64,000 nt of DNA, from positions 725,554 through 789,553 of the forward strand of contig JBAZYC010000001.1 of assembly GCA_041659525.1 (NCBI GenBank), read 5' to 3'. The first letter of the stretch is position 1. The number at the start of each line of letters is the position of its first letter. Made by a program: the position numbers and the translations under genes. The DNA is from an archaeon. GTDB lineage: Archaea > Iainarchaeota > Iainarchaeia > Iainarchaeales > JAAZKV01. Of this stretch, positions 2,406 through 62,348 are shown piece by piece. The notes under the pieces are model-generated. The model was not told the DNA's origin and ran no database searches. It worked only from the letters and a program-made list of their open reading frames with translations.

Positions 2406-3777
2406 AGTCCACGCATATTTGGATACAAAATCAAAACTTTTTTGTAGTTGTTCAACAGCATCAGCAGATGCTCCAAATTCTCAAACTTGTCCTCTGTGTA
2501 ATGGTCATCCCGGCGCAAAACCCGTTTTAAATGAAAAAGCAGTTGAGCTTGGAGTTAAAGTTGGTTTAGCTCTTGGTTGTACAATTAATGAAGATTTTTT
2601 CTTTTCAAGAAAAACTTATTTTTATCCTGATATGAGTATGAATTACCAAATTACTCAATACGAGGTTCCGGTTGCCCAAAATGGATTAGTTGTTCTTCCG
2701 AGTGGAAAAAAAGTTAGAATTAGAAGAGCGCATATTGAGTGGGATCCTGCTGCTTTAGTTCACCCTAATGGAATGGGTAAGAGTAATTACGTTTTAATTG
2801 ATTATAATCGCTCAGGATTACCTTTAATTGAAATTGTAACTGAACCAGATATTGATTCTCCAATTGAAGCAAGAGAATTCATGAACACCTTAGAAAATAT
2901 TTTAGGTTATTTGGGTGTGTTAAAACCTGATACTACGATGAAAGCGGATTGTAATATTTCTCTTAATGGAGGAAACCGAACTGAAATAAAAAATGTTTCA
3001 GGTTTTGCTGCTGCAGAAAAAGCACTTACTTATGAAATTTCTAGACAAAAACAGGAACTAAAAAATGGAAAAGTAATTGAGCAACACACAAGAGCATTTA
3101 ACGCTGATACTGGGATGACTACCGAATTAAGAAAAAAAGAAACTGAGGATGATTATGGTTATATTTTTGATCCAGATTTAGTAAAAGTTTCTCTTGGAAA
3201 AGATTATTTAATAAAAATAAAATCCGAAATGCCTGAATTACCTGAAGAGAAAGCGCAGAGATTGATGAAGCAATTTAATTTTTCAGAGTACGAAGCAAGA
3301 GTAATTTGTGGGAATTTTAATTTAGGAAAATTGTTTGATGAATTAGTATTGCAAAAAGCAAATCCCAATATTTCAGCTAAATTACTTACAAGAGAACTAC
3401 TTGCAGTAATGAATCATGATGCCCTTTCTTGGAGTGAGGTTTTAGTTAAACCAAGCGAGTTAGTTGAACTTGTAAAATTAATTGAGAGTGGAAAAGTAAC
3501 TGACAAGAACACAAAGCAGTCAATGATTAACTATATTTCAGGAGACAAATCTTCTCCTAAAGCTTTTTTAGAAAAAAACAATTTACTTATTTCGGAGAGT
3601 ATTGATATTGATTCAGTTATAACAAAAATCCTAGTTGCTAATGAAAAAGCGGTTGTTGATTATAAAGCGGGTAACGAGAAATCTCTTAATTTCCTTGCCG
3701 GTTTAGTTATGAGGGAAACTAAGGGAACAGTTAATCCTAGTAAAGTTCAAGAACTTTTAAAACAAAAACTTGCTTAA
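2371..3777 (+). CDS. gatB: Asp-tRNA(Asn)/Glu-tRNA(Gln) amidotransferase subunit B
   Basis: 468 aa. The N-terminus is MIGLEVHAYLDTKSKLFCSCS and the C-terminal GatB/YqeY-like tail is NFLAGLVMRETKGTVNPSKVQELLKQKL. The length fits GatB and not the roughly 620-aa GatE. The true start is probably the internal MMIGLE Met. Confidence 0.8.
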   Translation: MVQEVEMMIGLEVHAYLDTKSKLFCSCSTASADAPNSQTCPLCNGHPGAKPVLNEKAVELGVKVGLALGCTINEDFFFSRKTYFYPDMSMNYQITQYEVPVAQNGLVVLPSGKKVRIRRAHIEWDPAALVHPNGMGKSNYVLIDYNRSGLPLIEIVTEPDIDSPIEAREFMNTLENILGYLGVLKPDTTMKADCNISLNGGNRTEIKNVSGFAAAEKALTYEISRQKQELKNGKVIEQHTRAFNADTGMTTELRKKETEDDYGYIFDPDLVKVSLGKDYLIKIKSEMPELPEEKAQRLMKQFNFSEYEARVICGNFNLGKLFDELVLQKANPNISAKLLTRELLAVMNHDALSWSEVLVKPSELVELVKLIESGKVTDKNTKQSMINYISGDKSSPKAFLEKNNLLISESIDIDSVITKILVANEKAVVDYKAGNEKSLNFLAGLVMRETKGTVNPSKVQELLKQKLA

Positions 3778-7945: not shown

Positions 7946-9295
7946 TTAGTTTCCGCAGTAAAATGTTGCTGTTAAGGTACCTTCTCGAGGCAGATTATTT
8001 AGACTGTTATCAGAATAATAAATAACATTTCCTGCCACCATTCCACCCATGCAATTTTCGTCAGAGAAAATGGAATCTTTTGCAAGACAAGAAATAAATC
8101 TACACTTTCTAGTATCACTACCTACTATCCAATGAATTAGTGTGCTTCCCATCATATTGGGGTGAAGACCATCTTTGTAACTTAAAGTTAAAACAAATGT
8201 ATTCTCATCTATTTTTTCCTGATTAGTTGTTGCGACAAAATCTAAGGGGGCATTCAAATCAGAAAATTGTTGACTATGCCCATTCGTTGTCACAATGGAT
8301 AATATCGCTGAGCTATACGGTGTTTTTTGTAAATAACAATAGTTTGAATCTGTCGGAATTGGAAATTTATTCAAATTTCTGTCATAGGATGAAAAATAGT
8401 CACAACTTGTACTTGTCATAGACCCATTGTTTGACACAACAGCATCTTTTGGGGATTGTAAAACAATATTATTAAGCAACTGAAAATTAATGTCATATAC
8501 TGCATTATAACTAACTTTATCCAATGTGAGAGGAGCTTGATAATTTTGGTCGACAGCATAAAACACGCCTATTTCATAATCAGTGCTTATTACATTGAGA
8601 CTTACGGACGGAAATATAAAAAAGAAAAGTAATATTGATATTACAAAAGAGCCAATAAAGGTTAATCCTGCTGTGAAAAGTAATTTTTTGTGGAAGGTGT
8701 TTTTTATTTTTGGGAAATACATAAGCCCTAGGAAAAAAGCTAGAAGACCTAAACCGACTGCCATATAAAAAACAGCGGTTAGCAATAGAGACGGCAAATA
8801 ATAGGAGACATTACTTCTAAAGATATTTATAAAACCAAACAATCCAAATGCAAAACCCAAAACAACAACTAAACTCGCCCCTATCCAAATAAGTAATTGT
8901 TTAGCATCTCTTTTATTACCAATTAGAAATACTAACAACCAAATAAAAACAAAATGAAGTACAACATACAAAGCTGAGGTTGTACTAAATAACAATTTTA
9001 CCTCCTCCAGATTTCCAATTAATCCTTTTAGTACTAATGAACTACCAAATGCCAAAAAGTAAGTTATAATTGTAAGTAAAATTGCTGGGAGTAATGCTTT
9101 GTTTAATAAGTTACTAATGGTAAACAAATCTTTGCCCTTTAAACCCAAAAATACCCAGCTATACCAAACAATAAATACAATTAACGAAACGACAAGTACT
9201 ATTTCAGGAATTGGGGCGAAGAAACTAATTGCATAAGCCATTAAGTCGTCTGCGAAACTCATATATTGAGATAGATTGGAATAGTTTAAGAACAA
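7946..9295 (-). CDS. Membrane protein with N-terminal multi-TM region and C-terminal extracytoplasmic domain
   Basis: 449 aa. About 8 hydrophobic helices are followed by a Cys-containing soluble domain; no family recognised. Confidence 0.4.
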   Translation of the reverse strand: MFLNYSNLSQYMSFADDLMAYAISFFAPIPEIVLVVSLIVFIVWYSWVFLGLKGKDLFTISNLLNKALLPAILLTIITYFLAFGSSLVLKGLIGNLEEVKLLFSTTSALYVVLHFVFIWLLVFLIGNKRDAKQLLIWIGASLVVVLGFAFGLFGFINIFRSNVSYYLPSLLLTAVFYMAVGLGLLAFFLGLMYFPKIKNTFHKKLLFTAGLTFIGSFVISILLFFFIFPSVSLNVISTDYEIGVFYAVDQNYQAPLTLDKVSYNAVYDINFQLLNNIVLQSPKDAVVSNNGSMTSTSCDYFSSYDRNLNKFPIPTDSNYCYLQKTPYSSAILSIVTTNGHSQQFSDLNAPLDFVATTNQEKIDENTFVLTLSYKDGLHPNMMGSTLIHWIVGSDTRKCRFISCLAKDSIFSDENCMGGMVAGNVIYYSDNSLNNLPREGTLTATFYCGN

Positions 9296-25409: not shown

Positions 25410-28400
25410 TTGGAATTGACTAAATTTTTTAGTAATCTTTCAAAAGAAAGCGTGGGCATTGCTGGAGGAAAAGGAGCTTCTCTAGGGGAAATGACTCGCG
25501 CTGGTATTCCAGTTCCTAATGGTTTTGTAGTTCTCTCTGATTCTTTTGAAAAGTTTTTAGAGGAAACAGATTTAAATGTTGAAATTGATGCAATTTTAGA
25601 TTCAGTGAATCACAACGAGATGCAATCAATTGAGAATGCTTCTGAAGAAATTAAAGCTCTTATTCTTAATGCGAAAATGCCAATTGATATTGAAAAAGAA
25701 ATAAAAAAGGATTTCAAAACTTTGAATGCAAAATTTGTTGCGGTTCGTTCTAGTGCAACTAGTGAAGATTTTTCTAGTGCTGCTTGGGCTGGACAACTTG
25801 ATAGTTTTCTTAATACTAAAGAAAAGGATTTACTTGAAAAAGTAAAACATTGTTGGGCTTCTCTATTTACTCCTAGAGCTATTTTTTACAGATTTGAAAA
25901 AGGACTTCACACTACAAAAATTAGTGTGGCTGTTGTAGTTCAAAAAATGGTTAATTCAGAGATAAGCGGAATAGCTTTTTCTGTTCACCCCGTAACCCAG
26001 GATAGGAATCAATTAATTATTGAAGCAGGATTTGGTTTAGGAGAAGCAATTGTTTCAGGTAGTATTACTCCTGATTCTTATGTGGTTGAAAAGAATCCAA
26101 GAAGAATAATTGACAAGAATATTAGTGATCAAGAAAGAGGGTTGTTTAAAGTTGAAACTGGCGGAAACGAATGGAAGAGTACTAAAGAAAATGGGGTAAA
26201 GCAAAAGCTTTCAGATAAGCAAATAATGGAGCTTAGTGAAATAATTTTGAGAATAGAAAAACATTATGGTTTTCCTTGCGATATAGAATGGGCATTTGAA
26301 GGGGGAAAATTCTTTATTGTCCAATCAAGACCAATTACCACTCTTTTAGATAAAAGTAATGATAACGAAATGCCTAGCGTAGTTAAAACAAAAAAAGTTT
26401 CAAGTAAATCAAAAGAGGATGAGATTCAAAAGTTTGTTTCATTGATTAATTCGCAACCACTTGATGTTAAGCAAGCCAAATGTAGTGTTTTGGCCGCTGA
26501 CATAGTTTTTGGGGTTTATTCTAATAAAGTAGTTTTCAATGAAAATTATTCACCCTTGATTCATCCGTATAAGTGGCCTAATTTGCAGCAAGTAATTCTT
26601 GAAGGAAGAATGAAAGGGGTTGAAAGAGTTATTTGGACAAATGCGATTAAGAACAAAAAAAAGTTTACAAGAGTTTTGAGTGAAGGTTCTGCTTTGCATA
26701 AAAAAATAGTGCGTATGAGTATTCCTGATTCACAACTATCAAAACTTTCTGAGCCACAGCTCTTAAAATATTTTGAGGAATTAGTTGAATTAACTAAAAA
26801 ATGGTGGGTGTATGCTGCGATAGGGGAAGATAAGGGGCTTGTGGTTGAAGAAAAATTAATTCCTTTGTTAGTTAAAAATCATAATTTAACTCCTCATGAA
26901 GCACAAGAATATTCTTCTGACATGGCTTCTCCCAAGGGGCAATCAGTGTTCTCAAAAGAAAGAACTGCTTTTTTAGAACTCTGTTTGATTCTTTCAAAAA
27001 ATAAAGCTCTTTTTAATTTAATAAAAAAAGGAGAGTCTTTACCTAAAAATAAGTTTTCTTTATTTTCAAAAAAAATAAATGATTATTCTAAAAAGTATTT
27101 TTACTCAAGAACAGATTTTTATGGAGGTCAAAAAATAAATGATTTTACTTTACCAAAATTAGTATTTGACGAATTAAATAAAACTACTTTATCAAAATTA
27201 AAACACGAGTTTATTGTTTTTAAAACTTCTGAAAAAGAATTAGAAAAAAGGCAAAAAGCGTGGTCAAAACGAGTTTCTTCAATTACAAAAGAAGAAAAAG
27301 ATTATTTGTGGTATTCTGAGGTAATGCACACTTGGATTGATGAAAGAAAAGTTTGTATGGTGTCCCAGTTTTATTATTTGTTTTCAGTTCTTGAAGAACT
27401 TTCTTTGAGAAGAAATATTAGTTATGACAAGCTTGCCTTACTAACTATAAGTGATTTAAAAAAATTTATCAAGGACGGAACAATTGATTTTGATTTAATC
27501 AAAAAAAGAGGAGAAGGAGCAGTTTTTGTTTATGAAAAAAACAAGCCTGTTGTAGAATTTTTTGAAAAAGACGCGGATTTGTTTAATGAAGCAATAAATA
27601 GGCACAGTTCTTCAGAAACAGTTGCTGGAACAATTGCAAGTAAGGGTAATGGCGAAAAAATTATTGTTGGTCGCGTAAAAATAGTTCATGATCCGTTTAA
27701 GGATTCTTTTGCTGAAGGGGAAGTATTAGTAACTACTATGACTCGTCCAGAGTTCGTACCTATAATGAAGAAAGCCATTGCGATTGTTACTGATGAAGGT
27801 GGACTTACCTCTCATGCTGCAATAGTATCAAGAGAGCTTGGGGTGCCTTGTATAATTGGAACAAAGAATGCTACAAAACTACTCAAGGACGGAGATTTGA
27901 TTGAAGTTGATGCAAATACAGGGGTTGTGAGACTAATAGATTCTACTAAAATTGAATCTTTAGTAAAAAATAATTTGGTTTTTGAAAAATCTATTACTCG
28001 TGATTGGGGAATGATTTATGCTGAAATTTGGCACAAAGTTTTCACCAGTGAATTCAAAAAGCAACTTGGTTGGGGTTATACAGAAGTTGTGTTTGAGGGT
28101 AAAAATAATTCTGTGACTATTTATCGTGCACCAAGTGAACATTTGGATGGAATGCGAGATTTTATTCTTGCTAATCTTGACAAGGACAAAGATTGGTTAA
28201 GGAATCATGCAAAAATAGTAAAAAAAATGGTGAACAAAGCAATTTCTTGGATGAATTATTTAGAAACCAAAAAGTTGTCAAATTATTCTTCAAAAGAACT
28301 AGCAATTATTTTTGATGATTTTGTTAAAATGAATATAGAACTAGGCCCGCGTTTTATTATGATGCTTTGGTTTCCAATTCAAATGGAGAAACATAATAAA

Positions 28401-31400
28401 GCAAATCAATACAAAGATGATGTTAAAGTAGCTATAGAAACTAGGGAAGAAATTGAAAAAATTGGTCCACTAGTTGATACTCTTGCAAGAAAAATTGCTG
28501 ATGAAGTTTCGCTTAGGGCTAAACTAGATAATTCTTTTTCTCGTTTTATTAGTATTGATCAAATAGATAACTATTTGAAGAAAAAAATAGTTCCTGATAG
28601 CAAGAACTTATCTTCAAGAAGCAAATATTTTATTGTTACTAATGAAGGAATATTACCAGAAGAATTTGAAAATTATTTAGCAAGAAAGAATTATTCATTA
28701 AAGAAAATTGATTTATCCAATATAACTACTATTAAGGGAAATCCTGCTTATCCTGGAGTGGTTAGGGGTATTGTAAAAATAATTAAGAATAAAGATTCTT
28801 TTGGAAAATTAAATGAAGGGGAAATTTTAGTTACTGGAATGACTACTCCTGATTTTTTACCAGTGATGAAGAAAACAGCTGGTTTCATCACTGATGAGGG
28901 CGGAATCACTTGTCATGCTGCAATAGTTGCTCGTGAACTAAAAAAGCCCTGCATAATAGGAACAAAAATAGCTACCGAAGTCCTAAAAGACGGTGATTTG
29001 GTAGAAGTTGATGCAAACAATGGAATTGTAAAAATCCTTGAGAGTTCAAAAGTAAAAGTTGAAAAGAGCAAAAGTGATTTGTCCCCAGGGCTTTGGAAAG
29101 ACTCTTTTCGTTGGAAATATGAGGCTTGGCCATTTTTCACATCTGTGTATTTGAAAGCTTCTTTGCCTGGGGAATCAAGTTATTATGTTCCGTGGCCAGA
29201 TTTTGTTAACAAGTTTGAAAATGGACATTTGGAAGCTTATTTGCCAAAAAAAGAAATTCTTTCTAAAGGTAAAGTTGAAATTGATGAATTAATTAGAGGG
29301 GATGATTATTTTGCAAAAGAATTTAGGTTACTTTTGAATAGAATACATAAAGCGATAAGTAATTGTGAAAAAGTAAGAAAGGACAAAAATTATTCTGAAC
29401 TAAATTTATGGTGGCCAGAGGTACAAAGCGTTCTTTCAGATGTTGCAGCACTATTATTTGGTTTTGATTATACTTTAAATGATTGGATGAAGGAGATGCA
29501 AACAAAAGATCCTGAATTGTTTAGTTCTATTTCATCTAGTATAAAAGAAATCAAACCATCTTTTATTAATGAAGCAATAAATGAAGTAGTTTCTTTAGTA
29601 AACAAATACCCTAATGACTTTGATAAAGTTCATTCTAAATTTATTGAAAACTTTTCATGGTTTCAGAATTCTTATGCTGGGGAGTTTGATATTACAAAAG
29701 AATGGCTCAGAAAATTTTATGAAGAGAATAAATCAAAAGTGAATCAAAATCATTCTAGCCCTAAAGCTTCTTCTCCAAAAAAATATAAATTACTATGTGA
29801 ACTTGCAAGTGAGGCAGTTTCGTTTAGAGATGACAAGAAAAAATTGCTTTTAATTGCAGTTGAGTTAATGAATGATTGGCTAAGAGAAAATTGCGAGAAA
29901 AATTCATTGAATTTTGATGAAATGAAATGGTTAAGCGTTGATGAAGTAGTTGAGGCAATTAGTGGAAACAAAAAAATTACTGCTTATGCAAAAAAATGCG
30001 CTTCTCAAAACAAAAGAATTGGTTTGATGGTTGAAAGGGGATATGAAGATGTTTCTGAAGATTTTTTTAACGAAATTGGCGAAGTTTTTTTGGGTTCGGG
30101 CAAGATAATTGAATTAAGAGGGATGACTGGGAATAAAGGAAAAATAGTTGGTAAAGCCAGAGTAATTCTTGATGCAAAAAAAGAGGAATATAAGCTTCAA
30201 ATGGGGGATATTTTAGTTACCTCCATGACTCGTCCAGAGTTTTTACCATTAATGAATAAAGCTGCGGCTTTTGTTACTGATGAAGGTGGAATAACTTGTC
30301 ACGCTGCGATTGTTGCAAGAGAAATGAACAAGCCTTGTATAATTAGTACCAAAACTGCCACTCAAATAATTAAAGATGGAGATTTGATTGAAGTTGATGC
30401 GAATACTGGGATTGTTAAAATCCTTGAGAGTTCAATTAAAAAAAAAAGTTTAACTGAGCCAATTGAATTAAGCAAGATTTATTCTCGAGAAAAAAGTCTT
30501 TTGTATTATAGAATGTGGAGTGATTCTGACAGAAAGGGGTATGAAAAATATTTGAATCACAAAGTAAAAAATAATTTGTTTATAATTTCTAAAAGTGGGG
30601 AAAAAGGGAGTGTTTGGTATAGTTTAGAAGAACTCAAAGAAATTGAAAAAAAGTTTTTAGAAATATATGAAGCTAATCCAAAAATTATTCAAGAAATCCT
30701 AAAAGATATAGCGGCCTCTTGGAAAGTTCTTCAAAAATACCTTTCTTCAGAAATATCTTCTCTAAATGATTTTAAAAAATATTATTCAAATTTAGTTGAT
30801 TTTTGGGCTGGTTGGAACACAATAATTAATGTTCCTGATTATTCTTGGGTTTTGGAAAAAGATAAGCAAAGGGTTTTGGATTCTAGAAAAGAAACAGAAA
30901 ATTACACCGAACAGCTTTCTTCTCTATTAACAAATTTTGTTGAAAAAGAGTTCCCTTCTCTAAAGGAACACTCTTTTTTTATTGATGTTGAAGAATTCCT
31001 TAACCCAAATCCGAATATAATGGAAAAGCTTCTAGAAAGAAAAAATGGTTGTTTTTTACTTAATGGCAAGCTTTATCCAAAAAATGAACTTGAAAATGTT
31101 TTGAATAAAAATAATTTGAAACTAGGGGTTGAATCAAATCCATCTTTGCAAGAAAGTTCAAAAGAAAAGTATTTTTTTGCAAGGGAAAGACCTTGGCTCT
31201 TTAATCCGGTTTATTGGAATCCGGTTGTTCAAACAAGTAAAGAAATAGAAGCAATTTATGGTACTTTTCTTTCAGTAGAATGGAATATTTACAAAGAAGG
31301 GCGAATGAGAGTAATAATTCCTCAAGAGGAGTGGGATAGAATTGGAGTATTTATTGCAAACAAAATGTTTTCTGATAAGCAATATTTTGATAATTTAGTA

Positions 31401-32576
31401 TCTAAAACTAAAAGTGCTAAAAAAGAAATTGATTCTTTTTTAATAAAATCTAAAAAACAGGATTATTCAAAATGTTCTTTAAAAGAGTTGAATTCTTTTG
31501 CTAAAGAGATTTATAGTTTGTTTATGAAGTATGATTCTGCAAGTGTATTTTCTTGGTTTATTGCAGGGGATTTGTTTAAAGAAAAAGTGCATAACAAATT
31601 AGGGTTAAGTTGGGAAGATTTTGAGATTGTTTCACTCCCTGAAGAAAAAACTTTTGTTTCAAAACTTGATGAAGATTTGCTAAAAGCATCTCTTTTGAAA
31701 AATCCCACTCTTCAAGCAGCAAATCTTTCAAATAAATACTATTGGGTGCCTTTTGGATATGATGGACCAAGTATTTGGGGCAAAGAGTACTTTTTGGAAA
31801 AAATAAATTCTATTAAAGATAATACAAAATTAGTAAAAAAAGAGTTAGAGAAAATAAAAGAGAATGATTTGAATAAGAAAAAAAAGATAAAAATTATATT
31901 AAACAAAATTTCAAAAGATAAACAAGCAATTGAGCTTTTGAAAAGAATGCATTATTTGACGCTTTGGACTGATGAGCGAAAAATGCTTGAGTTTCAGTTA
32001 TTTTATTATTATAATTTGGTTCTTGAGAGAATTGGTAAATTAACAGGGTTTTCAGTTATTCAACTCAAACATCTTACTGTTGAAGAACTTTTGTTGATTT
32101 CTCAAGAAAAAAATAGTTTAATTCAAAAAGCAAATGATAGAATCAATAATCCATTTCTTACTATTATAAAAAAAGGAAAAGTAGATTTTTGTACAAATGA
32201 AGAATATAATGAAATGTATGAGAAGATTGAGAATCAGCTTTCATCAACTGAACTAAAAGGGACAGTGGCTTGTAAAGGGCCAAAGGAAAAATATGTGGCA
32301 AAAGTAAAAGTGGCTTCTTCTCCAAAAGATGGTGAAAAGTTACTTGAAGGAGAATTTTTAGTAGCCTCAATGACTACTCCTGAATATATTGTTTCAATGA
32401 AAAAAGCTATTGGGTTTATTACTGATGAGGGTGGAGTAACTTGTCATGCTGCAATTGTTGCAAGAGAAATGAACAAACCTTGTGTTATTGGCACAAAAGT
32501 TGCTACTAAAGTTCTCAAAGATGGCGATTTGGTAGAGGTAGATGCAAATACAGGGATAATTAAGAAGATTTCTTAA
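25410..32576 (+). CDS. Giant (2388 aa) PEP-utilizing-enzyme family protein: N-terminal PPDK/PEP-synthase-type ATP-grasp nucleotide-binding domain plus four swivel phosphohistidine domains
   Basis: N-terminus GIAGGKGASLGEMTRAGIPVPNGFVV…VAVRSSATSEDF…CDIEWAFEGGKFFIVQSRPIT is the PEPS/PPDK/rifampin-phosphotransferase ATP-binding domain. There are four copies of …TDEGG[LIV]T[SC]HAAIV[SA]RE[LM][GNK][VK]PC[IV]IGTK…DGDL[IV]EVDAN[TN]G[IV]…, with His codons at 27812, 28914, 30300 and 32445. Unknown helical regions of about 300-450 aa precede each copy. It is a single uninterrupted ORF with an apparent TTG start. Confidence 0.8.
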   Translation: MELTKFFSNLSKESVGIAGGKGASLGEMTRAGIPVPNGFVVLSDSFEKFLEETDLNVEIDAILDSVNHNEMQSIENASEEIKALILNAKMPIDIEKEIKKDFKTLNAKFVAVRSSATSEDFSSAAWAGQLDSFLNTKEKDLLEKVKHCWASLFTPRAIFYRFEKGLHTTKISVAVVVQKMVNSEISGIAFSVHPVTQDRNQLIIEAGFGLGEAIVSGSITPDSYVVEKNPRRIIDKNISDQERGLFKVETGGNEWKSTKENGVKQKLSDKQIMELSEIILRIEKHYGFPCDIEWAFEGGKFFIVQSRPITTLLDKSNDNEMPSVVKTKKVSSKSKEDEIQKFVSLINSQPLDVKQAKCSVLAADIVFGVYSNKVVFNENYSPLIHPYKWPNLQQVILEGRMKGVERVIWTNAIKNKKKFTRVLSEGSALHKKIVRMSIPDSQLSKLSEPQLLKYFEELVELTKKWWVYAAIGEDKGLVVEEKLIPLLVKNHNLTPHEAQEYSSDMASPKGQSVFSKERTAFLELCLILSKNKALFNLIKKGESLPKNKFSLFSKKINDYSKKYFYSRTDFYGGQKINDFTLPKLVFDELNKTTLSKLKHEFIVFKTSEKELEKRQKAWSKRVSSITKEEKDYLWYSEVMHTWIDERKVCMVSQFYYLFSVLEELSLRRNISYDKLALLTISDLKKFIKDGTIDFDLIKKRGEGAVFVYEKNKPVVEFFEKDADLFNEAINRHSSSETVAGTIASKGNGEKIIVGRVKIVHDPFKDSFAEGEVLVTTMTRPEFVPIMKKAIAIVTDEGGLTSHAAIVSRELGVPCIIGTKNATKLLKDGDLIEVDANTGVVRLIDSTKIESLVKNNLVFEKSITRDWGMIYAEIWHKVFTSEFKKQLGWGYTEVVFEGKNNSVTIYRAPSEHLDGMRDFILANLDKDKDWLRNHAKIVKKMVNKAISWMNYLETKKLSNYSSKELAIIFDDFVKMNIELGPRFIMMLWFPIQMEKHNKANQYKDDVKVAIETREEIEKIGPLVDTLARKIADEVSLRAKLDNSFSRFISIDQIDNYLKKKIVPDSKNLSSRSKYFIVTNEGILPEEFENYLARKNYSLKKIDLSNITTIKGNPAYPGVVRGIVKIIKNKDSFGKLNEGEILVTGMTTPDFLPVMKKTAGFITDEGGITCHAAIVARELKKPCIIGTKIATEVLKDGDLVEVDANNGIVKILESSKVKVEKSKSDLSPGLWKDSFRWKYEAWPFFTSVYLKASLPGESSYYVPWPDFVNKFENGHLEAYLPKKEILSKGKVEIDELIRGDDYFAKEFRLLLNRIHKAISNCEKVRKDKNYSELNLWWPEVQSVLSDVAALLFGFDYTLNDWMKEMQTKDPELFSSISSSIKEIKPSFINEAINEVVSLVNKYPNDFDKVHSKFIENFSWFQNSYAGEFDITKEWLRKFYEENKSKVNQNHSSPKASSPKKYKLLCELASEAVSFRDDKKKLLLIAVELMNDWLRENCEKNSLNFDEMKWLSVDEVVEAISGNKKITAYAKKCASQNKRIGLMVERGYEDVSEDFFNEIGEVFLGSGKIIELRGMTGNKGKIVGKARVILDAKKEEYKLQMGDILVTSMTRPEFLPLMNKAAAFVTDEGGITCHAAIVAREMNKPCIISTKTATQIIKDGDLIEVDANTGIVKILESSIKKKSLTEPIELSKIYSREKSLLYYRMWSDSDRKGYEKYLNHKVKNNLFIISKSGEKGSVWYSLEELKEIEKKFLEIYEANPKIIQEILKDIAASWKVLQKYLSSEISSLNDFKKYYSNLVDFWAGWNTIINVPDYSWVLEKDKQRVLDSRKETENYTEQLSSLLTNFVEKEFPSLKEHSFFIDVEEFLNPNPNIMEKLLERKNGCFLLNGKLYPKNELENVLNKNNLKLGVESNPSLQESSKEKYFFARERPWLFNPVYWNPVVQTSKEIEAIYGTFLSVEWNIYKEGRMRVIIPQEEWDRIGVFIANKMFSDKQYFDNLVSKTKSAKKEIDSFLIKSKKQDYSKCSLKELNSFAKEIYSLFMKYDSASVFSWFIAGDLFKEKVHNKLGLSWEDFEIVSLPEEKTFVSKLDEDLLKASLLKNPTLQAANLSNKYYWVPFGYDGPSIWGKEYFLEKINSIKDNTKLVKKELEKIKENDLNKKKKIKIILNKISKDKQAIELLKRMHYLTLWTDERKMLEFQLFYYYNLVLERIGKLTGFSVIQLKHLTVEELLLISQEKNSLIQKANDRINNPFLTIIKKGKVDFCTNEEYNEMYEKIENQLSSTELKGTVACKGPKEKYVAKVKVASSPKDGEKLLEGEFLVASMTTPEYIVSMKKAIGFITDEGGVTCHAAIVAREMNKPCVIGTKVATKVLKDGDLVEVDANTGIIKKIS

Positions 32577-32639
32577 TTTCTCTAAAAATCAATCCTTAAA
32601 ACATCTTTTGTTGTTTTTATTGTGTGTTGAAGTGTTGTT

Positions 32640-34067
32640 ATGATTGTTCAAAATCTTCCTTTGAATCCTAAAGCTGAATTATTTAGGTGGGGTCCGATTC
32701 AGGTACATCCGTTTTATCTTGATCATATTGAAATGATGCATTCTGGAGAGTTTGAAAAAGTTTATCCGAATTATTCGTGGCCAGAATCGCTTTTGTTGTT
32801 TAAAGGAAACGATTTGCTTTGGTTAAATGAGTTTTCCGAGCTTTGGGCAGTTGGAAAAAGAACTTTTATTGATTTAATTTTTGAAAAAAAACAATTTTTA
32901 AAAGTAAGAAAGAGCTATGAATCTGCAAGAAAAAAAGTTGTTGTTTTTGAAAAAAAATTGGATAATACCAAGATTGAACTACTATCGGATAAAGAATTGG
33001 GTTTGCTTTCAGCAAATTTTAGTAAGGTTTGGAATTCTTTTTGGGTTCATGGTTTGATTCCTGAGCTTGCGAATTGCGGGGCGGACAAGTATCTTGAGGA
33101 AAAGCTAAAAGAAGTAGTTTCTGATTCTACTGAAAGATTGGCTGTAATGGAAGCACTTACTGCTCCTGAAGAGCTTTCTTTTTATCAACAAGAAGAAATT
33201 GAGCTTTTAGAGACAAAAAACCTAAAAAAACACAGGGATAAGTATTTTTGGATAAAAAATGGGTATGGGCATGTAGTTGACCTTGATGTTGAATTTTTTG
33301 TTGAAAGAAAAAAGGGTTTATCAAAAGGCCTAAAGAAACAAATAACTGCTAGATTGAATCAGGCAAAAGAAAAAAAGAAAGTTGTTCAAAAAAAGTATCA
33401 CTTATCAAAAGAAATAATGGAAATAGCTAGAAAAATTGTTTATTGTATTGTTTGGCAGGATGAAAGAAAAAAGAATATTGAACGTTTTTTACATTATAAA
33501 TATTTGTTGCTTGCTGAATGTTCAAGAAGAAAAGAAATTTCTAAAACTGATTTACTTACGCTTTTCTCTTTTGAACTTGAACAATTGCTTTTAGGAAAAT
33601 CTTTTGATGAAGAACTTAAAAAAAGAAAAAAAAGCTTTGCGTTGATTCTTGCTTCAAAAAGATTAGAGTTTATTTATCCTCCTCTTGCTGACGAGTATTG
33701 GGGTGTTTATTCTGAAAAAGTTGATGGACAAATAAAAGAAATAAAAGGGATAGTTGCAAGTACTGGAGAAAATCCTTTAATCAGTGGGCGAGTTAGAATT
33801 ATTCTTGATCCTCATAAAGTATCTGATTTTAAGGAAGGTTCAATTCTTGTTGCTCCAATGACTAGTCCAGATTATATTTATGTAATGAGAAAATCAATTG
33901 CAATTATAACTGATACAGGGGGATTGACTTCTCATGCTGCAATAGTTTCAAGAGAGCTTGGAGTACCTTGCATTGTTGGAACTAAAATTGCTACCCAAGT
34001 TTTCAAAGATGGAGACTTGGTAGAAGTTGATGCGAATAAAGGGATTATTAGAAAACTCAAGAATTGA
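32640..34067 (+). CDS. PEP-utilizing-enzyme swivel-domain protein (unknown N-terminal module + 1 phosphohistidine domain)
   Basis: 475 aa. C-terminal …TDTGGLTSHAAIVSRELGVPCIVGTK…DGDLVEVDANKGII (His codon 33933). The N-terminal module is similar to inter-swivel regions of the upstream giant gene. Confidence 0.7.
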   Translation: MIVQNLPLNPKAELFRWGPIQVHPFYLDHIEMMHSGEFEKVYPNYSWPESLLLFKGNDLLWLNEFSELWAVGKRTFIDLIFEKKQFLKVRKSYESARKKVVVFEKKLDNTKIELLSDKELGLLSANFSKVWNSFWVHGLIPELANCGADKYLEEKLKEVVSDSTERLAVMEALTAPEELSFYQQEEIELLETKNLKKHRDKYFWIKNGYGHVVDLDVEFFVERKKGLSKGLKKQITARLNQAKEKKKVVQKKYHLSKEIMEIARKIVYCIVWQDERKKNIERFLHYKYLLLAECSRRKEISKTDLLTLFSFELEQLLLGKSFDEELKKRKKSFALILASKRLEFIYPPLADEYWGVYSEKVDGQIKEIKGIVASTGENPLISGRVRIILDPHKVSDFKEGSILVAPMTSPDYIYVMRKSIAIITDTGGLTSHAAIVSRELGVPCIVGTKIATQVFKDGDLVEVDANKGIIRKLKN

Positions 34068-36991
34068 TTTTTATGAATTTTAAAGAATTGTTTGACTGGG
34101 TTTCTGCTTCTAAAAACGAATATGAATTAAGCAAATTTGATGGAGATATTTTCTTTTACACTGACATGGTTCTTTTTGATACTTTAAAGAAAAAGTACCA
34201 AATAGTTTTGCTTTACCCAAAAGATGATCCTTACAGGTATTGGTATTTTTCAAATCTCTCTGCTCTTGAAAGTAATTCAAAAAAGCTTTATAAAAAATAT
34301 TTGAAAAATCCAGCTAAACTTAAAAAAGAGTTTAATGCAAAAAAGAAAAAAGTTCTTTTAGCGAACAAGGTTCTTTTTAGTTCTAAACAAGTTGATTTGA
34401 AAAAGTACAAAAAGTTAGTTGTTTCAGTAAAAGGTTTTGCTAGTATTGTAATGAATACTCTTGAGGGGTTAGAGAAAATTCTTGGGAAAGAATTAGTTAA
34501 AGAATTTCCTGATGAAAAAATAAGAACTGTGTTGTCCACTTCTTTGTATACTTCCTACGCTCAATCTGAAGAGGAAGCCCTAATAAAAATAATTGAACAA
34601 TTGCCTAAAAATGAATTTGAGTTGTTAAAAACCGGGGAAAAGGATTTTAAAAAATATCCTGTTTTTAGTAAAAAGCTTAAAGTACACGAATCTAATTGGG
34701 GTTGGGCTTACTCGAATTATGCTTCTCATGAATTTGGTTTAACTAAAGAGATATTCCAAAAATCTTTATCAATAGTAAATAATATCGAATTTGACAAATT
34801 AAGATTTAGTGGGTTAGAAGTTAAACGAAGTGAAAAAAGAACCTTAATTAAAAAATTGAGTTCTAAAAAAAGAAAAATAGTTGAATTACTTGATTTGCTT
34901 TTCCAAATGCGTGATGAAAGAAAAGAAACTTGGATAAAAATTACCCCTCCTACAAAGCTTTTCTTAGGAAAATTTGCTGTAGAGCATGGTTTGACTTATA
35001 ATGATTTTAGATGGCTTACTTTTGAAGAACAAATAAGTTTCGAAAAAAATAAAGAAAAATATCTGTCTTTAATTAATGAAAGAAAAAACGGGTTGGTTGC
35101 TTTTTATGGATTTGGAAAAGAAAACAAGTTAATTTTCACAGGAAATGATTCTGAAAAGTTTGGGGAAATATTTTTTAAAAGAGAAAGTGTTTTGAAGTTA
35201 AAAGGAACTCCTGTTTCAGTTGGTAAAGCTACTGGAGAAGTTTGCATAATAATGAATAAATCTGATTTCCAAAAGTTCAAAGAGGGAAATATTTTAGTTT
35301 CTTCTCACACCACTCCTGATTATTTGCCTTTAATGAAGAAAGCTAGTGCGATTCTTGCTGAACGAGGGGGAATAACCTCTCACGCAGCAATTGTCTCAAG
35401 AGAACTACACATTCCTTGCATTGTTGGAATAAAAGGATTAGTTGGAAATTTCAAAGACGGCGATTTAGTAGAAGTGGATGCGAATAAAGGAATTGTAAAA
35501 ATAATAAAAAATAATGAAGAAATCAAACGCAATTCTAGAGAATTTGATTTTGAGGGTATTTCAAAAATGAAGTGGCGTTATATTCACAAAAGATTTAGGA
35601 CTCCTTTTTACATGTTCTTGCTTTTTGATGGTATTTCAAATCATTACAACAAGGAGTTTGATTTTCCTTATGAAATTGCAGGATTAGTGCTTGATTATGA
35701 ATTAATGCTGTCGCAGGAAGATTGGGACAAACAAAAAGTAATGGCTCTTGAAAAGATTAAACAAAATCCTTCTTTTTGTTTGGATTTTACAAAAAAAGCT
35801 TATTTGCAAAATGAAGAAAATCTAAAGTTAATTAAATCCATGGCCAAAATGGATTTAGCTTCTGTTTCAAATGCCTCTCTTGCCGATTTGCTTGTTAATT
35901 ATTCTAAAAAATCAATGAATATTTCTTCATTTATGGTTTTACCATTGCTTTTTGAACAAGACTTAGAAAAAAACATTCACGAAGCGGTTGAAAAAAAATA
36001 TGGGGCAAAAGCAACTGGAGTTATGCATACTTTAACGATTCCAATAAAGAAAACAACCACTCAGTTAGAAGAAAATAATATTCTAAAGCTTGCCTTATTA
36101 AAGAAAAAAAATAAATTAACTTTAACTCAAGTAGAAGAGCACCAAGCAAAATATGGGTGGCTAAAAAATACCTCTTTTGATGGTAGTTTTTATTCTATCC
36201 GAGAAATCCAAGATAAGATTGATATTGCGTCTAAAAGTAATCTTTTAGAGAAACTTAAACATAAAAAATTAGAAGAAGAAAAGCAAATTAAGTTGTTTAA
36301 AAAATACCGAAATTCATTCAAAGGATCAAAAATAGCAAATTCTATTGATACATTAAATGAACTTATCTTTTTTAGAAGTTGGAGAACAGAAATATTCTCT
36401 CAAAATGCTCAACTTTTAAAAGAATTTTTTGCACAAATCTCAAAAAGAATTGATTTGGATAATTCAACAAATTTGTTTTACTTAACTCATTTAGAAATAG
36501 CTAAACTTTTAACTGATGGGAAAAGTGCTCCCTCTAATTTGATAGAGGAAAGAAAAAAAGGTTATTTTATGTTTGCATCAAAGAAAAGTACTATTGTTGG
36601 AGAAGGAGAGTTGCTTGCGAATTTAAAGAAATGTATGAATATTCACTCTAATGAAGAGGTTAAAGATGAAATAAAAGGAAAATCAGCTTTTCCTGGATTG
36701 GTTACGGGAATTGTTTGTATCATAAATTCAAAAGCAGATTTTGCTAAAGTAAATTCAAAGAATCAAATAATTGTGGCATTCTCAACCACTCCCGATCAAG
36801 TTCCTATAATAAAAAAAGCTGCAGCAATTGTTACTGACGAAGGGGGGATTTTAAGTCACGCATCAGTAATATCAAGAGAATTAAAAATTCCTTGCATAAT
36901 TGGAACAAAGAACGCAACAAAAATCCTAAAAGACGGCGATTTGATAGAGGTTGATGCTAACAAAGGAATTATAAAGAAGAAAAGTAATTAG
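34064..36991 (+). CDS. PEP-utilizing-enzyme swivel-domain protein (2 modules)
   Basis: 975 aa. Swivel domains at about aa 375-480 (ERGGITSHAAIVSRELHIPCIVGIK, His 35381) and at the C-terminus (TDEGGILSHASVISRELKIPCIIGTK, His 36857; variant motif). The start overlaps the previous stop (ATGA). Confidence 0.7.
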   Translation: MIFMNFKELFDWVSASKNEYELSKFDGDIFFYTDMVLFDTLKKKYQIVLLYPKDDPYRYWYFSNLSALESNSKKLYKKYLKNPAKLKKEFNAKKKKVLLANKVLFSSKQVDLKKYKKLVVSVKGFASIVMNTLEGLEKILGKELVKEFPDEKIRTVLSTSLYTSYAQSEEEALIKIIEQLPKNEFELLKTGEKDFKKYPVFSKKLKVHESNWGWAYSNYASHEFGLTKEIFQKSLSIVNNIEFDKLRFSGLEVKRSEKRTLIKKLSSKKRKIVELLDLLFQMRDERKETWIKITPPTKLFLGKFAVEHGLTYNDFRWLTFEEQISFEKNKEKYLSLINERKNGLVAFYGFGKENKLIFTGNDSEKFGEIFFKRESVLKLKGTPVSVGKATGEVCIIMNKSDFQKFKEGNILVSSHTTPDYLPLMKKASAILAERGGITSHAAIVSRELHIPCIVGIKGLVGNFKDGDLVEVDANKGIVKIIKNNEEIKRNSREFDFEGISKMKWRYIHKRFRTPFYMFLLFDGISNHYNKEFDFPYEIAGLVLDYELMLSQEDWDKQKVMALEKIKQNPSFCLDFTKKAYLQNEENLKLIKSMAKMDLASVSNASLADLLVNYSKKSMNISSFMVLPLLFEQDLEKNIHEAVEKKYGAKATGVMHTLTIPIKKTTTQLEENNILKLALLKKKNKLTLTQVEEHQAKYGWLKNTSFDGSFYSIREIQDKIDIASKSNLLEKLKHKKLEEEKQIKLFKKYRNSFKGSKIANSIDTLNELIFFRSWRTEIFSQNAQLLKEFFAQISKRIDLDNSTNLFYLTHLEIAKLLTDGKSAPSNLIEERKKGYFMFASKKSTIVGEGELLANLKKCMNIHSNEEVKDEIKGKSAFPGLVTGIVCIINSKADFAKVNSKNQIIVAFSTTPDQVPIIKKAAAIVTDEGGILSHASVISRELKIPCIIGTKNATKILKDGDLIEVDANKGIIKKKSN

Positions 36992-36998
36992 CATTTAG

Positions 36999-38069
36999 AT
37001 GGTTCTTAAGGAATCTTGCCCTAACTTATTTAGTACTGGTGTTGATTGGCAGCTTTATTTATCGCGTCCGTTTTCTATTTTCGAATCTTCTTTGTGGCAT
37101 TCTTGGTTTTCTTCTGAAGAATTACTTTCTGTTTTAGGGGTTGTTTCTCCTAAAGGATTGTACATTGAATATCCTAAAGAAATTAGTAACAATTACCGTG
37201 ATTCAACTGAGTTAAAAAATTTTTCTGATTCTTTTGAATTAATTCCAAAAACAAATCGAGAAAAATCATTGGCTCTTCTAAAAAAAGGACTTGAGTTAAA
37301 TAATAAAACAATTGAATTAATAAAAAGTAATTCGCTTTCGCTTGAAGAGGCAGTGAATCATTTAACTCTTCTTGCAGTTCATTCTACTATAGCTCCTTTT
37401 TTTATTAGAAATGGATTAGAAAAGCATAATTTAATTGATGAAGAAATTGCCACTCTTGCAGATGAACTTAGAAAAAAATCATTTTATCCTGATTATTTAG
37501 AGAAAGTAATTTTTCCTATTGCTCAAAAAAGAATTGAGTCATTAGGGTTTGAAAAAGATTGTTTGCCTTTCATTACTTACAAGGATTTGATTAAAGGAAA
37601 TACAAGTACTGTTTTATTGAATAAGGAAAAATCAAAGCAAGGATTGCTTTTTGTTTATGATTGTAATACTAGCGATGAAAATGTTACTTTTGTTGAAGAT
37701 ACTAGTCCAATAATAAAATCACTTAACAAAGATTTTGTTGAAAGTAAAATTGGGGGCTGTACTGCCTATAGTGGAAAAGTTATTGGTAAAGTTCATTTAG
37801 TTTTTACAAATAACCCTAAAGGAATTATTTTTGATCAGGGGGATATTTTAGTTGCTATTCACACAAGTCCTAGATTGAGTCCTCTTTTTGATAAAGCTGG
37901 GGCGATTGTTACTGATGAAGGTGGAATTGCTTGTCACGCAGCAATTATTAGTAGAGAAATGCATATTCCTTGTATTGTTGGAACAAAGAATGCAACAAAA
38001 ATTTTGCATGATGGAGATTTAGTAGAAGTTGACGCAAGTAAAGGGACTGTAAAAATCTTAACTAAATAA
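36999..38069 (+). CDS. PEP-utilizing-enzyme swivel-domain protein (unknown N-terminal module + 1 phosphohistidine domain)
   Basis: 356 aa. C-terminal TDEGGIACHAAIISREMHIPCIVGTK…DGDLVEVDASKGTV (His 37935). Confidence 0.7.
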   Translation: MVLKESCPNLFSTGVDWQLYLSRPFSIFESSLWHSWFSSEELLSVLGVVSPKGLYIEYPKEISNNYRDSTELKNFSDSFELIPKTNREKSLALLKKGLELNNKTIELIKSNSLSLEEAVNHLTLLAVHSTIAPFFIRNGLEKHNLIDEEIATLADELRKKSFYPDYLEKVIFPIAQKRIESLGFEKDCLPFITYKDLIKGNTSTVLLNKEKSKQGLLFVYDCNTSDENVTFVEDTSPIIKSLNKDFVESKIGGCTAYSGKVIGKVHLVFTNNPKGIIFDQGDILVAIHTSPRLSPLFDKAGAIVTDEGGIACHAAIISREMHIPCIVGTKNATKILHDGDLVEVDASKGTVKILTK

Positions 38070-43342: not shown

Positions 43343-43567
43343 TTAGAAGTCGCATGCTCTAACAGTTTTTCTTCCGTTTTCTTTTGCTCTTGCAGCTGCT
43401 TCTTTTACCATTTTAGCTACTTTTCCGCTCAAAGCGTCAACAACATCGCTTGCTGTGTTACAATCTTCTGCTTTGATTGCGTCCTTAATTTTTGATGCTA
43501 CAACTAATACTTCAGCCATAATTATCTCCCCCATGCCCCTTTGTTGAGGCACTTTTCTGAAAAACAA
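43343..43567 (-). CDS. Histone-fold-like small DNA-binding protein (DUF1931-like)
   Basis: MAEVLVVASKIKDAIKAED…VVDALSGKVAKMVKEAAARAKENGRKTVRACDF has the histone-fold alpha2/alpha3 pattern including GRKT[IV]. The real start is probably the internal MAEV (about 43519). Confidence 0.5.
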   Translation of the reverse strand: MFFRKVPQQRGMGEIIMAEVLVVASKIKDAIKAEDCNTASDVVDALSGKVAKMVKEAAARAKENGRKTVRACDF

Positions 43568-43676
43568 TAACCCTAAAGAGTATTTAAACCAAATGGTTCA
43601 ATTTGGCATTTTAGGCAAGTGTGGGTCACTTTTTCTTTTAGTGGCTTTGTTAAAAGCTTTTTTACTCTTTAATTAC

Positions 43677-43734
43677 TTGTCTGTGATGAAGCTAATGTTC
43701 TGATTTGTGATGAACGATGGGCGAACTGAGACAA
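43677..43734 (+). ncRNA. C/D-box sRNA (2'-O-methylation guide)
   Basis: The elements are: 5' stem TTGTC, C box GUGAUGA (43683-89), a 10-nt guide, D' CUGA (43700-03), a 3-nt linker, C' GUGAUGA (43707-13), a 12-nt guide, D CUGA (43726-29), and 3' stem GACAA complementary to the 5' stem. This is canonical archaeal C/D sRNA spacing. Confidence 0.65.
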
Positions 43735-43822
43735 CTTTAAACTACAGCTTTGATAAGAGCGATTTTTAGTTTGGTGGTAGGTTTAAATACTTTCAAAGAG
43801 TTTCTATCTATAATTCAATTTA

Positions 43823-44713
43823 GTGGTTCTAATGCAAGAGGATGGTGTGTTTATTCCCTCAGAAAAGGCTTCTTCGCCTGGGTTTTCAATTAAAATGGAT
43901 AACTTGGGTTCTACTCAAATAAAACCTGAAAAAGATTCTCTTACTGGGGAAAAAGAAGATGATTATTCTGTTCCTGAAAAAGAAATAGTGGTAGAAAGAG
44001 TTAATGATGGTTCCGATACTTCAAGAGTAAAAACTGGGATAGTTGGTTTTGATGAACTAATTGAAGGTGGATTTGAAAGAGAATCAATTGTGTTAACCGT
44101 TGGTTCTAGTGGGACTGGTAAAACAATTTTAAGTATGCAATTTCTTTACAAAGGAATAGTAGATTATAACGAACCAGGAGTTTTCATTTCTTTTGAAGAA
44201 GAAAGAGATTCGCTCTTCAAGCATTCTTTGCAATTTGGTTGGGATTTTGAGAACTTAGAAAAAAATGATAAATTTAGATTACTAGTGTTTAAGCCTCACC
44301 AAGTTCCAAAAATTTTGGAAGAAGGGGGAGGACAAATCAGAGATGCTTTGGCTGAAGTTGGAGCAAAGAGAGTAGTTATTGATTCAATCACTGCTTATGG
44401 ATTACTTTTTAGAGATGAGTATAAAAGAAGAGAAAAGATTTTAGAGTTTTTTAATTTACTTAGAAGATGGGGAGTAACTTCAATGATTGTTTGCGAGGAT
44501 TCTCCAAAAGATGTTGAAGAACAAGAAGGAAGTATTGGATTTATTAGTGATGCAATTGTTTCTCTTTACTACGAGCATGATAAAGAAAAAGGAATTAGAA
44601 TTCATTCACTTGAAGTGTTAAAGATGCGCGGAACAAAACACACAAACAAAGTTTGCGCAATGAACTTTGAAAAAGATGGAATTACAGTCTACCCTGACGT
44701 AGAGGTATTCTGA
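43823..44713 (+). CDS. KaiC/RecA-superfamily ATPase
   Basis: Walker A VGSSGTGKT inside the typical KaiC-like context TGIVGFDELIEGGFERESIVLTVG. Confidence 0.65.
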   Translation: MVLMQEDGVFIPSEKASSPGFSIKMDNLGSTQIKPEKDSLTGEKEDDYSVPEKEIVVERVNDGSDTSRVKTGIVGFDELIEGGFERESIVLTVGSSGTGKTILSMQFLYKGIVDYNEPGVFISFEEERDSLFKHSLQFGWDFENLEKNDKFRLLVFKPHQVPKILEEGGGQIRDALAEVGAKRVVIDSITAYGLLFRDEYKRREKILEFFNLLRRWGVTSMIVCEDSPKDVEEQEGSIGFISDAIVSLYYEHDKEKGIRIHSLEVLKMRGTKHTNKVCAMNFEKDGITVYPDVEVF

Positions 44714-61466: not shown

Positions 61467-62348
61467 TTGGTTAATTGGGGGGTTTTGAGCATGGCTGGAA
61501 TGGACAAATTGAAAGCAAAAGAAGAGGAAGAGGACGAGACTAGTGAAGAAGAAACCCTAGAAACTGAAAAAACTATTACTGCGCTTGATAATAACGAATC
61601 TGTTGAGGGCGATTCTAATCCAAGTCACTCTGTTAATGATGATGGGGAAGAAAATGATGAGGAAGAAACTTCTGCTGAGGTAAGCGAAGATAATGACAAA
61701 ATGCCTTTCCCAAGAGCTACTATTACTAAACTTGTGAGAAGAAATATTTCTAAAGGTAAACAAATTAAAGGAACAGTTAAGGATGAAATGAATTTTTGGG
61801 TTGCTCAAATGGTTGAGCGAATAGCAAAGAAAATGAATTCCCAACCCTATACTTTTGTTAATTACGATATGCTAAAAGATGCAGTTGCTCCTTATGAGGA
61901 TATTCAAGGAATAAACAAACAAAGAGAGGTTCTTGTAGCCAAAATTAATGCAATTAAAACTGAATGTGACACTGTAATTAATGAAATTGATACTGAAATT
62001 AAATCTAAATCAGTTTCACTTAAATTAGAACAAGAAGAAATGCCTTTCCCTAAAGCAACTATTACTAATAAACTTAGAAAGTTCCTTGGGGACGGTAAAA
62101 CAATTAAGGGTCCTGTAAAAAGAGGACTAAATGTTTGGATTGGTAGTGTAGTTGAGAGAGTTTCAAAGAAAATGGATTCCTATCCTTACCCTTACATTGA
62201 TCGCTCAATGTTCAAAGAAGCAGTTGAACCCTACGAAGCGGTAGGCGAAATAGAACTTGAGAAAGAAAGAATAATTCAGCAAATGGAATCAATGAAAACC
62301 ATGTGCGATTTATTAGTAATGGAAATTGACAGAAAGTTTAAAGTTTAA
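61467..62348 (+). CDS. Acidic protein with two internal repeats of about 100 aa (possible histone-fold-like halves)
   Basis: Repeats MPFPRATITKLVRRNISKGKQIKGTVKDEMNFWVAQMVERIAKKM…PYE and MPFPKATITNKLRKFLGDGKTIKGPVKRGLNVWIGSVVERVSKKM…PYE. The N-terminal stretch is D/E-rich. Confidence 0.4.
   Translation: MVNWGVLSMAGMDKLKAKEEEEDETSEEETLETEKTITALDNNESVEGDSNPSHSVNDDGEENDEEETSAEVSEDNDKMPFPRATITKLVRRNISKGKQIKGTVKDEMNFWVAQMVERIAKKMNSQPYTFVNYDMLKDAVAPYEDIQGINKQREVLVAKINAIKTECDTVINEIDTEIKSKSVSLKLEQEEMPFPKATITNKLRKFLGDGKTIKGPVKRGLNVWIGSVVERVSKKMDSYPYPYIDRSMFKEAVEPYEAVGEIELEKERIIQQMESMKTMCDLLVMEIDRKFKV

Follow-up and report, generated by a model that had tools for sequence, protein, structure and literature searches.

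The window (the whole 64,000-nt stretch of DNA that was analysed) has a GC content of 32% and carries several archaeal markers, namely tRNA-intron endonuclease, deoxyhypusine synthase, GatB, GatD, GatE, ProRS and an ATP-dependent DNA ligase. It also encodes a type IV pilus-like cluster and very large LamG-domain proteins, and contains three tRNAs and no rRNA. The locus described here is a 312-nt spacer between a gene for a 58-aa protein (43343-43519, minus strand) and a KaiC-like gene (ATG at 43832, plus strand). The matches of the 58-aa gene, to archaeal histone (NCBIfam, E-value 0.016) and to the LonB LID domain (Pfam, E-value 0.005), were weak and below threshold. Relatives of the KaiC-like protein are named Candidatus Diapherotrites or Iainarchaeum, and the organism is accordingly a DPANN archaeon of this group.

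A box C/D sRNA gene in the spacer

We observed that this spacer holds, almost certainly as a real gene, a box C/D sRNA at 43677-43734 (plus strand). It reads TTGTC-T-GTGATGA-AGCTAATGTT-CTGA-TTT-GTGATGA-ACGATGGGCGAA-CTGA-GACAA, and no ORF was found to overlap it. Its parts, along with the signals that flank it, are the following:

43650..43657, plus strand: TATA-like octamer TTAAAAGC, with TTG before it and a T run after it; conserved at fixed spacing
43677..43681, plus strand: 5' half of the terminal stem, TTGTC, complementary to 43730-34
Between the 5' stem half and box C, plus strand: single T
43683..43689, plus strand: box C, GTGATGA; invariant in the 7 orthologs
43690..43699, plus strand: D' guide AGCTAATGTT, 10 nt, probable orphan; different in each ortholog
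43700..43703, plus strand: box D', CTGA; present in 6 of 7 orthologs, degenerate in L133
43704..43706, plus strand: D'-C' linker, TTT; 3 to 44 nt among orthologs
43707..43713, plus strand: box C', GTGATGA; core TGATGA kept in 6 of 7 orthologs
43714..43725, plus strand: D guide ACGATGGGCGAA, 12 nt; core invariant in the 7 orthologs
43726..43729, plus strand: box D, CTGA; invariant in all orthologs and present also in box-degenerate copies
43730..43734, plus strand: 3' half of the terminal stem, GACAA, pairing with 43677..43681
43763..43767, plus strand: T5 run, 29 nt downstream of the element; possible terminator of the primary transcript

The initial annotation had described the four boxes, their spacings and the 5-bp terminal complementarity, and our reading of the window sequence agreed with it base for base. 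The D guide has the typical length of ~12 nt, and the D' guide (10 nt) is slightly short. The terminal stem TTGTC/GACAA was also recovered by a minimum-free-energy fold.

A regular expression for the four boxes, run over both strands of the 64-kb window, had a single match, at 43677-43734. There were no four-box matches in 300 dinucleotide-preserving shuffles, even with the looser form included. A relaxed scan (degenerate boxes allowed, terminal stem required) returned the sRNA site and one match within an ORF. The latter, a loose four-box-like match (AATGATGA...CTGA at 61631-61682, plus strand), lies in an acidic coding repeat of the ORF 61467-62348, and we took it as chance.

In an Rfam cmscan, the interval 43679-43731 (plus strand) matched sR2 (RF01139), an archaeal C/D family, with 44.0 bits, just above the gathering score of this family (42). 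Roughly twelve further C/D families hit the same interval, all of them below threshold. The boxes and the spacing of sR2 align end to end with the window sRNA; however, its D guide, GUgGAUGGCgGcu, is off by an indel and several bases, and its D' guide is unaligned. The match is carried by the boxes, and a common target with sR2 is not supported by the guides. Because the guide sequences differ, we rejected the window sRNA as a true member of the sR2 family.

The assignment to the C/D box class, as made in the initial annotation, was borne out by the four boxes and the stem, by the Rfam score above gathering, by six orthologs and by RNA-seq-verified kin (Mma sR106 and Iho sR11, described below). 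No L7Ae, Nop5 or fibrillarin was found among the Pfam-scanned ORFs of the window (those of at least 110 aa, and the 58-aa gene).

Conservation and promoter signals

We compared the KaiC neighbourhoods of relatives, with a KaiC identity of 65-82%. These relatives share a gene order that begins with ProRS and GNAT and continues, further on, with the tRNA endonuclease, the 58-aa gene (minus strand), KaiC and LamG. An ortholog of the sRNA, adjoining the same 58-aa gene, was observed in six related genomes, giving seven sequences with that of the window:

L125, 35-94: D'-C' region canonical
L131, 8028-8086: D'-C' region canonical
L129, 9810-9908: structured D'-C' linker of 44 nt
L255, 6944-7022: hairpin D'-C' linker of 24 nt
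L256, 1443-1516, minus strand: D'-C' linker of 17 nt
L133, 7410-7479: GCC-GAAA-GGC hairpin flanked by degenerate D'/C'

None of the seven sequences departs from the others in box C (GTGATGA), in box D or in the core of the D guide, GATGGGCGA (also written GAUGGGCGA). Five relatives have a GCC/GGC stem, L255 has GCU/GGC, which includes a G.U pair, and the window has GUC/GAC; the change from GCC/GGC to GUC/GAC affects both sides of the stem and is compensatory. Every genome had a D' guide of its own (AGCTAATGTT, AGCTTTCATT, TGCTTAATTTAT, TGTTTTTCATT, AGCTTTAATCAC, AGCCAAAATT and CAAAACATTATT). Inserted hairpins were seen in the linkers of the orthologs, e.g. CUCC-UUCG-GGGG and GAUUGCU/AGCAAUU.

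Each of the seven orthologs has an octamer of the form TT[AT][AT]AA[AG][GC] (TTAAAAGC or a close variant) at a distance of exactly 19 nt from the 5' stem, on its upstream side, and the sequence of the spacer between the two varies. The conservation of this TATA-like box at a fixed spacing argues for transcription of the sRNA, and the octamer would act as its promoter. The conserved promoter spacing and the fixed D guide, together with a D' guide and a linker that are free to change, indicate a real gene with one constrained guide.

The centre of the octamer lies ~26 nt before G43679, and the usual archaeal TATA-to-start distance fits a start ~26 nt past the octamer. This suggests that the 5' end of the transcript is near G43679. 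With such a start, only the conserved 3-bp stem GUC/GAC would be left inside the RNA. The initial annotation had the 5-bp stem closing the k-turn; the 5-bp complementarity is there, but the stem within the RNA may be only these 3 bp.

The sRNA had also been placed upstream of the KaiC-like gene. The position is correct, but the link is positional only, since relatives keep the sRNA with the 58-aa gene. The sRNA and KaiC are separated by other genes in L131, L133 and L255; it is the 58-aa gene, and not KaiC, with which the sRNA keeps company.

A further motif, GGTTTAAATAC, occurs twice in the 312-nt spacer, at 43580-43590 (reverse complement), where it faces the 58-aa gene, and at 43780-43790 (plus strand), where it faces the KaiC-like gene. 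The KaiC-proximal copy is conserved in relatives as TTTAAATACTTTTAAATC. These copies are likely BRE/TATA promoters, in which case the spacer would hold three promoters.

Other versions of the sRNA were also seen. A box-degenerate one lies upstream of KaiC in L125 (3810-3869) and L126 (3835-3895), at the place that the intact sRNA occupies in the window, with the same element in L127 and L128. It reads ATGTAACTAAA..TC[A/G]TCTTTCGG[C/A]GCAGATGGGCGAGCTGAGGC, and is without the C, D' and C' boxes but retains box D and the D guide. The two lineages share about 50 conserved nt, with flanks that could not be aligned. L125 has its intact copy (35-94) besides the box-degenerate one, and the latter, in L125 and L126, may be a pseudogene or a repurposed RNA. 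In L131, 85 nt 3' of the intact sRNA, there is a partial second copy (8110-8176; the same in L132) that has only the stretch TGGGCGAGCTGAGGCGATTA in common with it, and it folds as a stable hairpin (-26.6 kcal/mol, z-score -2.5).

The D guide and helix 44 of 16S rRNA

We searched the sRNA catalogue and the 16S/23S alignments of seven archaea in the supplement of Dennis et al. 2015 (PMC4644070, Additional file 1). The guide core GAUGGGCG was also present in four RNA-seq-verified sRNAs of this catalogue:

Methanococcus maripaludis (Mma) sR106, D guide: AAGAUGGGCGAG
Ignicoccus hospitalis (Iho) sR11, D' guide: CCGAUGGGCGGA
Sulfolobus acidocaldarius (Sac) sR122, D' guide: GCGAUGGGCGGC
Methanopyrus kandleri (Mka) sR114, D' guide: GUGAUGGGCGGA

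The D guide of the window sRNA, ACGAUGGGCGAA-CUGA, shares the register of these four published sRNAs of the GAUGGGCG family, with its fifth base opposite C1402. Mma sR106, which is among the most abundant M. maripaludis sRNAs by the RNA-seq coverage column (PMC4644070), has the same layout (box C, a 12-nt D' guide, CUGA, UUU, box C', a 12-nt D guide and CUGA). Its D half is identical to that of the window sRNA at 26 of 30 positions, the D guides being AAGAUGGGCGAG and ACGAUGGGCGAA. However, its D' guide, ACGGAGUAGCUU, is unrelated, and it belongs to the Euryarchaeota rather than to DPANN. Iho sR11, Sac sR122 and Mka sR114 have the core GAUGGGCGG and the same 16S h44 register, with C1402 at N+5. 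They differ in that the guide is at D', has G and not A at position 2, and forms 10-11 bp. Their hosts are hyperthermophiles, and the partner guides aim elsewhere (e.g. 16S U894 and A1223). A full-text literature search with the guide sequence gave nothing relevant, and a C'-guide-D pattern had no matches in viral contigs.

Guides of the GAUGGGCG family pair with 16S helix 44 at CCGCCCGUC (E. coli 1399-1407), so that N+5 is C1402. When we paired the Sac, Mka, Iho and Mma guides with the helix 44 sequence of their own species (same supplement, PMC4644070), the following duplexes were obtained:

Sac sR122: 11 contiguous bp; position 11 is C-G1408
Mka sR114: 11 contiguous bp; position 11 is U-A1408
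Iho sR11: 10 contiguous bp; position 11 is C-G1408
Mma sR106: 8 contiguous bp; no position-11 pair

Each of these four duplexes has one U.G wobble, opposite G1405. As position 11 pairs in Sac, Mka and Iho, guide position 11 follows 16S nucleotide 1408 in three of the four species.

With the rRNA of other archaea, the window D guide formed 8 bp (seven Watson-Crick and one U.G) with the universal h44 sequence CGCCCGUC (1400-1407). It has an A.C at position 2. With an A at nucleotide 1408 it would also have a C.A at position 11, and with G1408 in its own 16S it would reach 9 bp. The fifth position from box D is G, the Watson-Crick partner of C1402. In three DPANN (Woesearchaeota) 16S+23S sets, no other small-subunit site ranked above h44 for any guide of the family by the N+5 rule, and for the relatives' majority guide h44 gave the best duplex overall, with -17.4 kcal/mol.

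C1402 is a P-site nucleotide of the decoding centre, and its ribose carries a methyl group in E. coli (m4Cm1402), in yeast (Cm1639, by snR70) and in human (Cm1703, by SNORD43). Iho sR11 has already been proposed in print as a Cm1402 guide. It is rather probable that the D guide of the window sRNA acts at 16S C1402, guiding Cm1402.

Several observations count against this assignment. N. equitans has Cm1402 yet no such sRNA (Seistrup et al. detected the modification, with 'no obvious sRNA candidate'), H. volcanii is without the C1402 modification, and in I. hospitalis the methylation of C1402 is below 50%. Dennis et al. 2015 gave 'NP' (no prediction) for Mma sR106 (NP/NP), Sac sR122 and the Mka sR114 D' guide (PMC4644070). 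Lastly, the invariant U at position 8, along with A/G at position 2 and C/U at position 11, would fit a hypothetical target, UCGCCCAUCG, even better.

The eukaryotic guides snR70 and SNORD43 (U43) are alike in directing methylation of the homologous nucleotide (E. coli C1402). The SNORD43 guide, GACGGGCGGA, has the register of the Mka guide and differs from it by one base. In contrast to the U of the archaeal guides, the eukaryotic ones have C opposite G1405, and they are intron-encoded and nucleolar. No SNORD43/snR70 covariance-model match was present among the 18 Rfam matches with an E-value up to 10, and the resemblance of the window sRNA to these snoRNAs is one of predicted target only.

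The element would be an independently transcribed box C/D sRNA gene of an Iainarchaeota/Diapherotrites-type DPANN archaeon. We infer for it transcription, sRNP assembly and methylation, in the following way. Transcription would start near G43679, ~26 nt past the TATA-like octamer that the orthologs share. A kink-turn would be formed by boxes C and D, with the short GUC/GAC stem closing it, and a k-loop by boxes C' and D'. Both motifs would be bound by L7Ae, and a Nop5 dimer and two fibrillarins would complete the sRNP. The 12-nt D guide would then pair with the stretch 5'-CGCCCGUC-3' of 16S helix 44 (E. coli 1400-1407), where G1405 would be in a U.G wobble, and fibrillarin would 2'-O-methylate the nucleotide opposite the fifth guide base upstream of box D, that is C1402.

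Other targets and the guide family in archaea

We also evaluated other targets for the D guide. A genuine single-guide C/D sRNA might instead be directed to a tRNA or other non-rRNA with 5'-UCGCCCAUCG-3', although we consider this unlikely. The variation of the guide agrees with such a target, since A/G at position 2 and C/U at position 11 are what pairing to U and G allows, and position 8 is always U. Further, sRNAs that target tRNAs typically have one functional and one orphan guide (Lui et al.), and the 'NP' entries above mean that Mma sR106, Sac sR122 and the Mka sR114 D' guide have no rRNA target in Dennis et al. (PMC4644070). However, UCGCCCAUCG was absent from the window and its three tRNAs, from the 16S/23S of seven archaea and, except as the sRNA antisense, from ~150 kb of DNA of the relatives. 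CGCCCAUC, likewise, had no match in the 16S or 23S alignments of Dennis et al. (PMC4644070). The window tRNAs were rejected as a target, all three being without a match. The only tRNA matches to the pattern were six tRNA-like T-arm ones in a scan of viral contigs, of which the clearest was a bacterial-type tRNA-Pro. This T-arm/acceptor placement was also rejected. It would methylate tRNA position 63, which to our knowledge is not a known archaeal modification.

A second candidate is 23S helix 35, where the D guide of a genuine C/D sRNA would target 5'-GCCCAUCG-3' and methylate the equivalent of E. coli C786. With AAGCCCAUCGA in Woesearchaeota-type 23S, the window guide forms 8 Watson-Crick bp (-16.7 kcal/mol), which ties with or slightly beats h44. 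Helices 35/35a are reported hotspots of conserved archaeal methylation, and a window-specific U-to-C change at guide position 11 improves the H35 pairing. The Woesearchaeota 23S loci, however, had been fetched by a pattern requiring GCCCATCG, which introduces an ascertainment bias for the H35 site. Among the species that share the guide core, H35 reads GGCCAAUCGAG (Mma, Mka), GGCCAAUCUAG (Iho) or GACCAAUCUAG (Sac), and GCCCAUC is absent throughout the 23S of these four species. H35 is therefore unable to explain the family-wide conservation of the guide. The relatives' majority guide was also weaker at 23S H35 (-14.7) than at h44 (-17.4), and we regard H35 as quite unlikely to be the target.

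Pairing at helix 44 could also serve a purpose other than methylation, with the sRNA acting as a folding chaperone of helix 44 or an assembly checkpoint. This segment of h44 is also where Pyrobaculum sR25 and Thermoproteus tenax sR35 pair (the site is 16S C1389* in the pan-archaeal alignment and C1368 by the numbering of Pyrobaculum). These differ from the family in having C at position 8 and a conserved N+5 mismatch, and owing to this mismatch they are predicted not to methylate. Chaperone roles have been proposed for the h44/45 guides of N. equitans, and the sub-stoichiometric methylation of C1402 in I. hospitalis would be in line with such a role. In the GAUGGGCG family, however, the N+5 pair is a Watson-Crick G-C, a configuration that permits methylation, and Cm1402 does occur in archaea. 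The G-C pair makes a chaperone that does not methylate less likely, and we hold this to be very improbable. That the motif arose by chance, or is a relic that has decayed and lost its function, as the box-degenerate copies in L125 and L126 might suggest, can hardly be credited given its intact boxes, the absence of matches in the 300 shuffles, the compensatory stem change, and a D guide and promoter spacing conserved in seven genomes despite diverging flanks.

The initial annotation had both guides target rRNA or tRNA. This looks right for the D guide, with its invariant core and its fit to 16S C1402, but it is not supported for the D' guide, which varies and for which we saw no convincing target. 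In the window, its three tRNAs, E. coli rRNA and six DPANN-type rRNAs, the D' guide had no site that exceeded chance, and the three matches to AACATTAGCTTAGAAGCAG in a JGI metagenome scan did not include rRNA. Because it varies freely among the orthologs, the D' guide is probably an orphan, evolutionarily unconstrained and without a target.

Two placements of both guides together on 23S were considered and rejected. For sites near E. coli 959 and 1056 (the GTPase-associated centre), the pattern TTCGCCCATCGT-N70-100-AACATTAGCT had no matches in the genome contigs. For adjacent sites in H35/H35a, the scan GCCCATCG-N4-16-TAGCTGGTT gave mostly chance matches and six archaeal 23S loci. The positions in these that were not forced by the pattern matched neither guide, and only the 8-bp core of the D guide survived.

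With the present work, a DPANN lineage for which we know of no described sRNAs gains a well-supported C/D box sRNA gene. The class itself is textbook. It also joins this sRNA to a guide family common to distant archaeal phyla, one whose members the main archaeal sRNA catalogue mostly lists as 'orphan'. As a tentative but reasonable possibility, GAUGGGCG may be a pan-archaeal guide (in Crenarchaeota, Euryarchaeota and DPANN) for the universally conserved 16S C1402 methylation, with a fixed U.G at G1405, and the counterpart of snR70/SNORD43. If so, Iainarchaeota would still use a guide RNA for a modification that RsmI introduces in bacteria and that N. equitans also has. Should the assignment to C1402 hold, Mma sR106, Sac sR122 and Mka sR114 (with its D' guide), all of them abundant and listed with no target, would gain a P-site function. 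The RNA-guided origin of a modification found in all three domains could then be tested in the genetically tractable M. maripaludis.

Some other features were observed. In a groundwater Woesearchaeota MAG, the 23S rRNA gene carries a group I intron (Rfam RF00028, 53.8 bits; L028, 6455-6793, minus strand). In the window, a 377-aa ORF that has LAGLIDADG_3 homing-endonuclease domains (1272-2405, plus strand) lies directly 5' of GatB (2371-3777, plus strand) and overlaps its start. The region 25410-38069 (plus strand) comprises an ORF of 2388 aa followed by three successive ORFs, each with PEP-utilizers mobile domains. Relatives have a giant PPDK_N + PEP-utilizers gene at this position, and the group of ORFs in the window could be a split or multi-intein gene.
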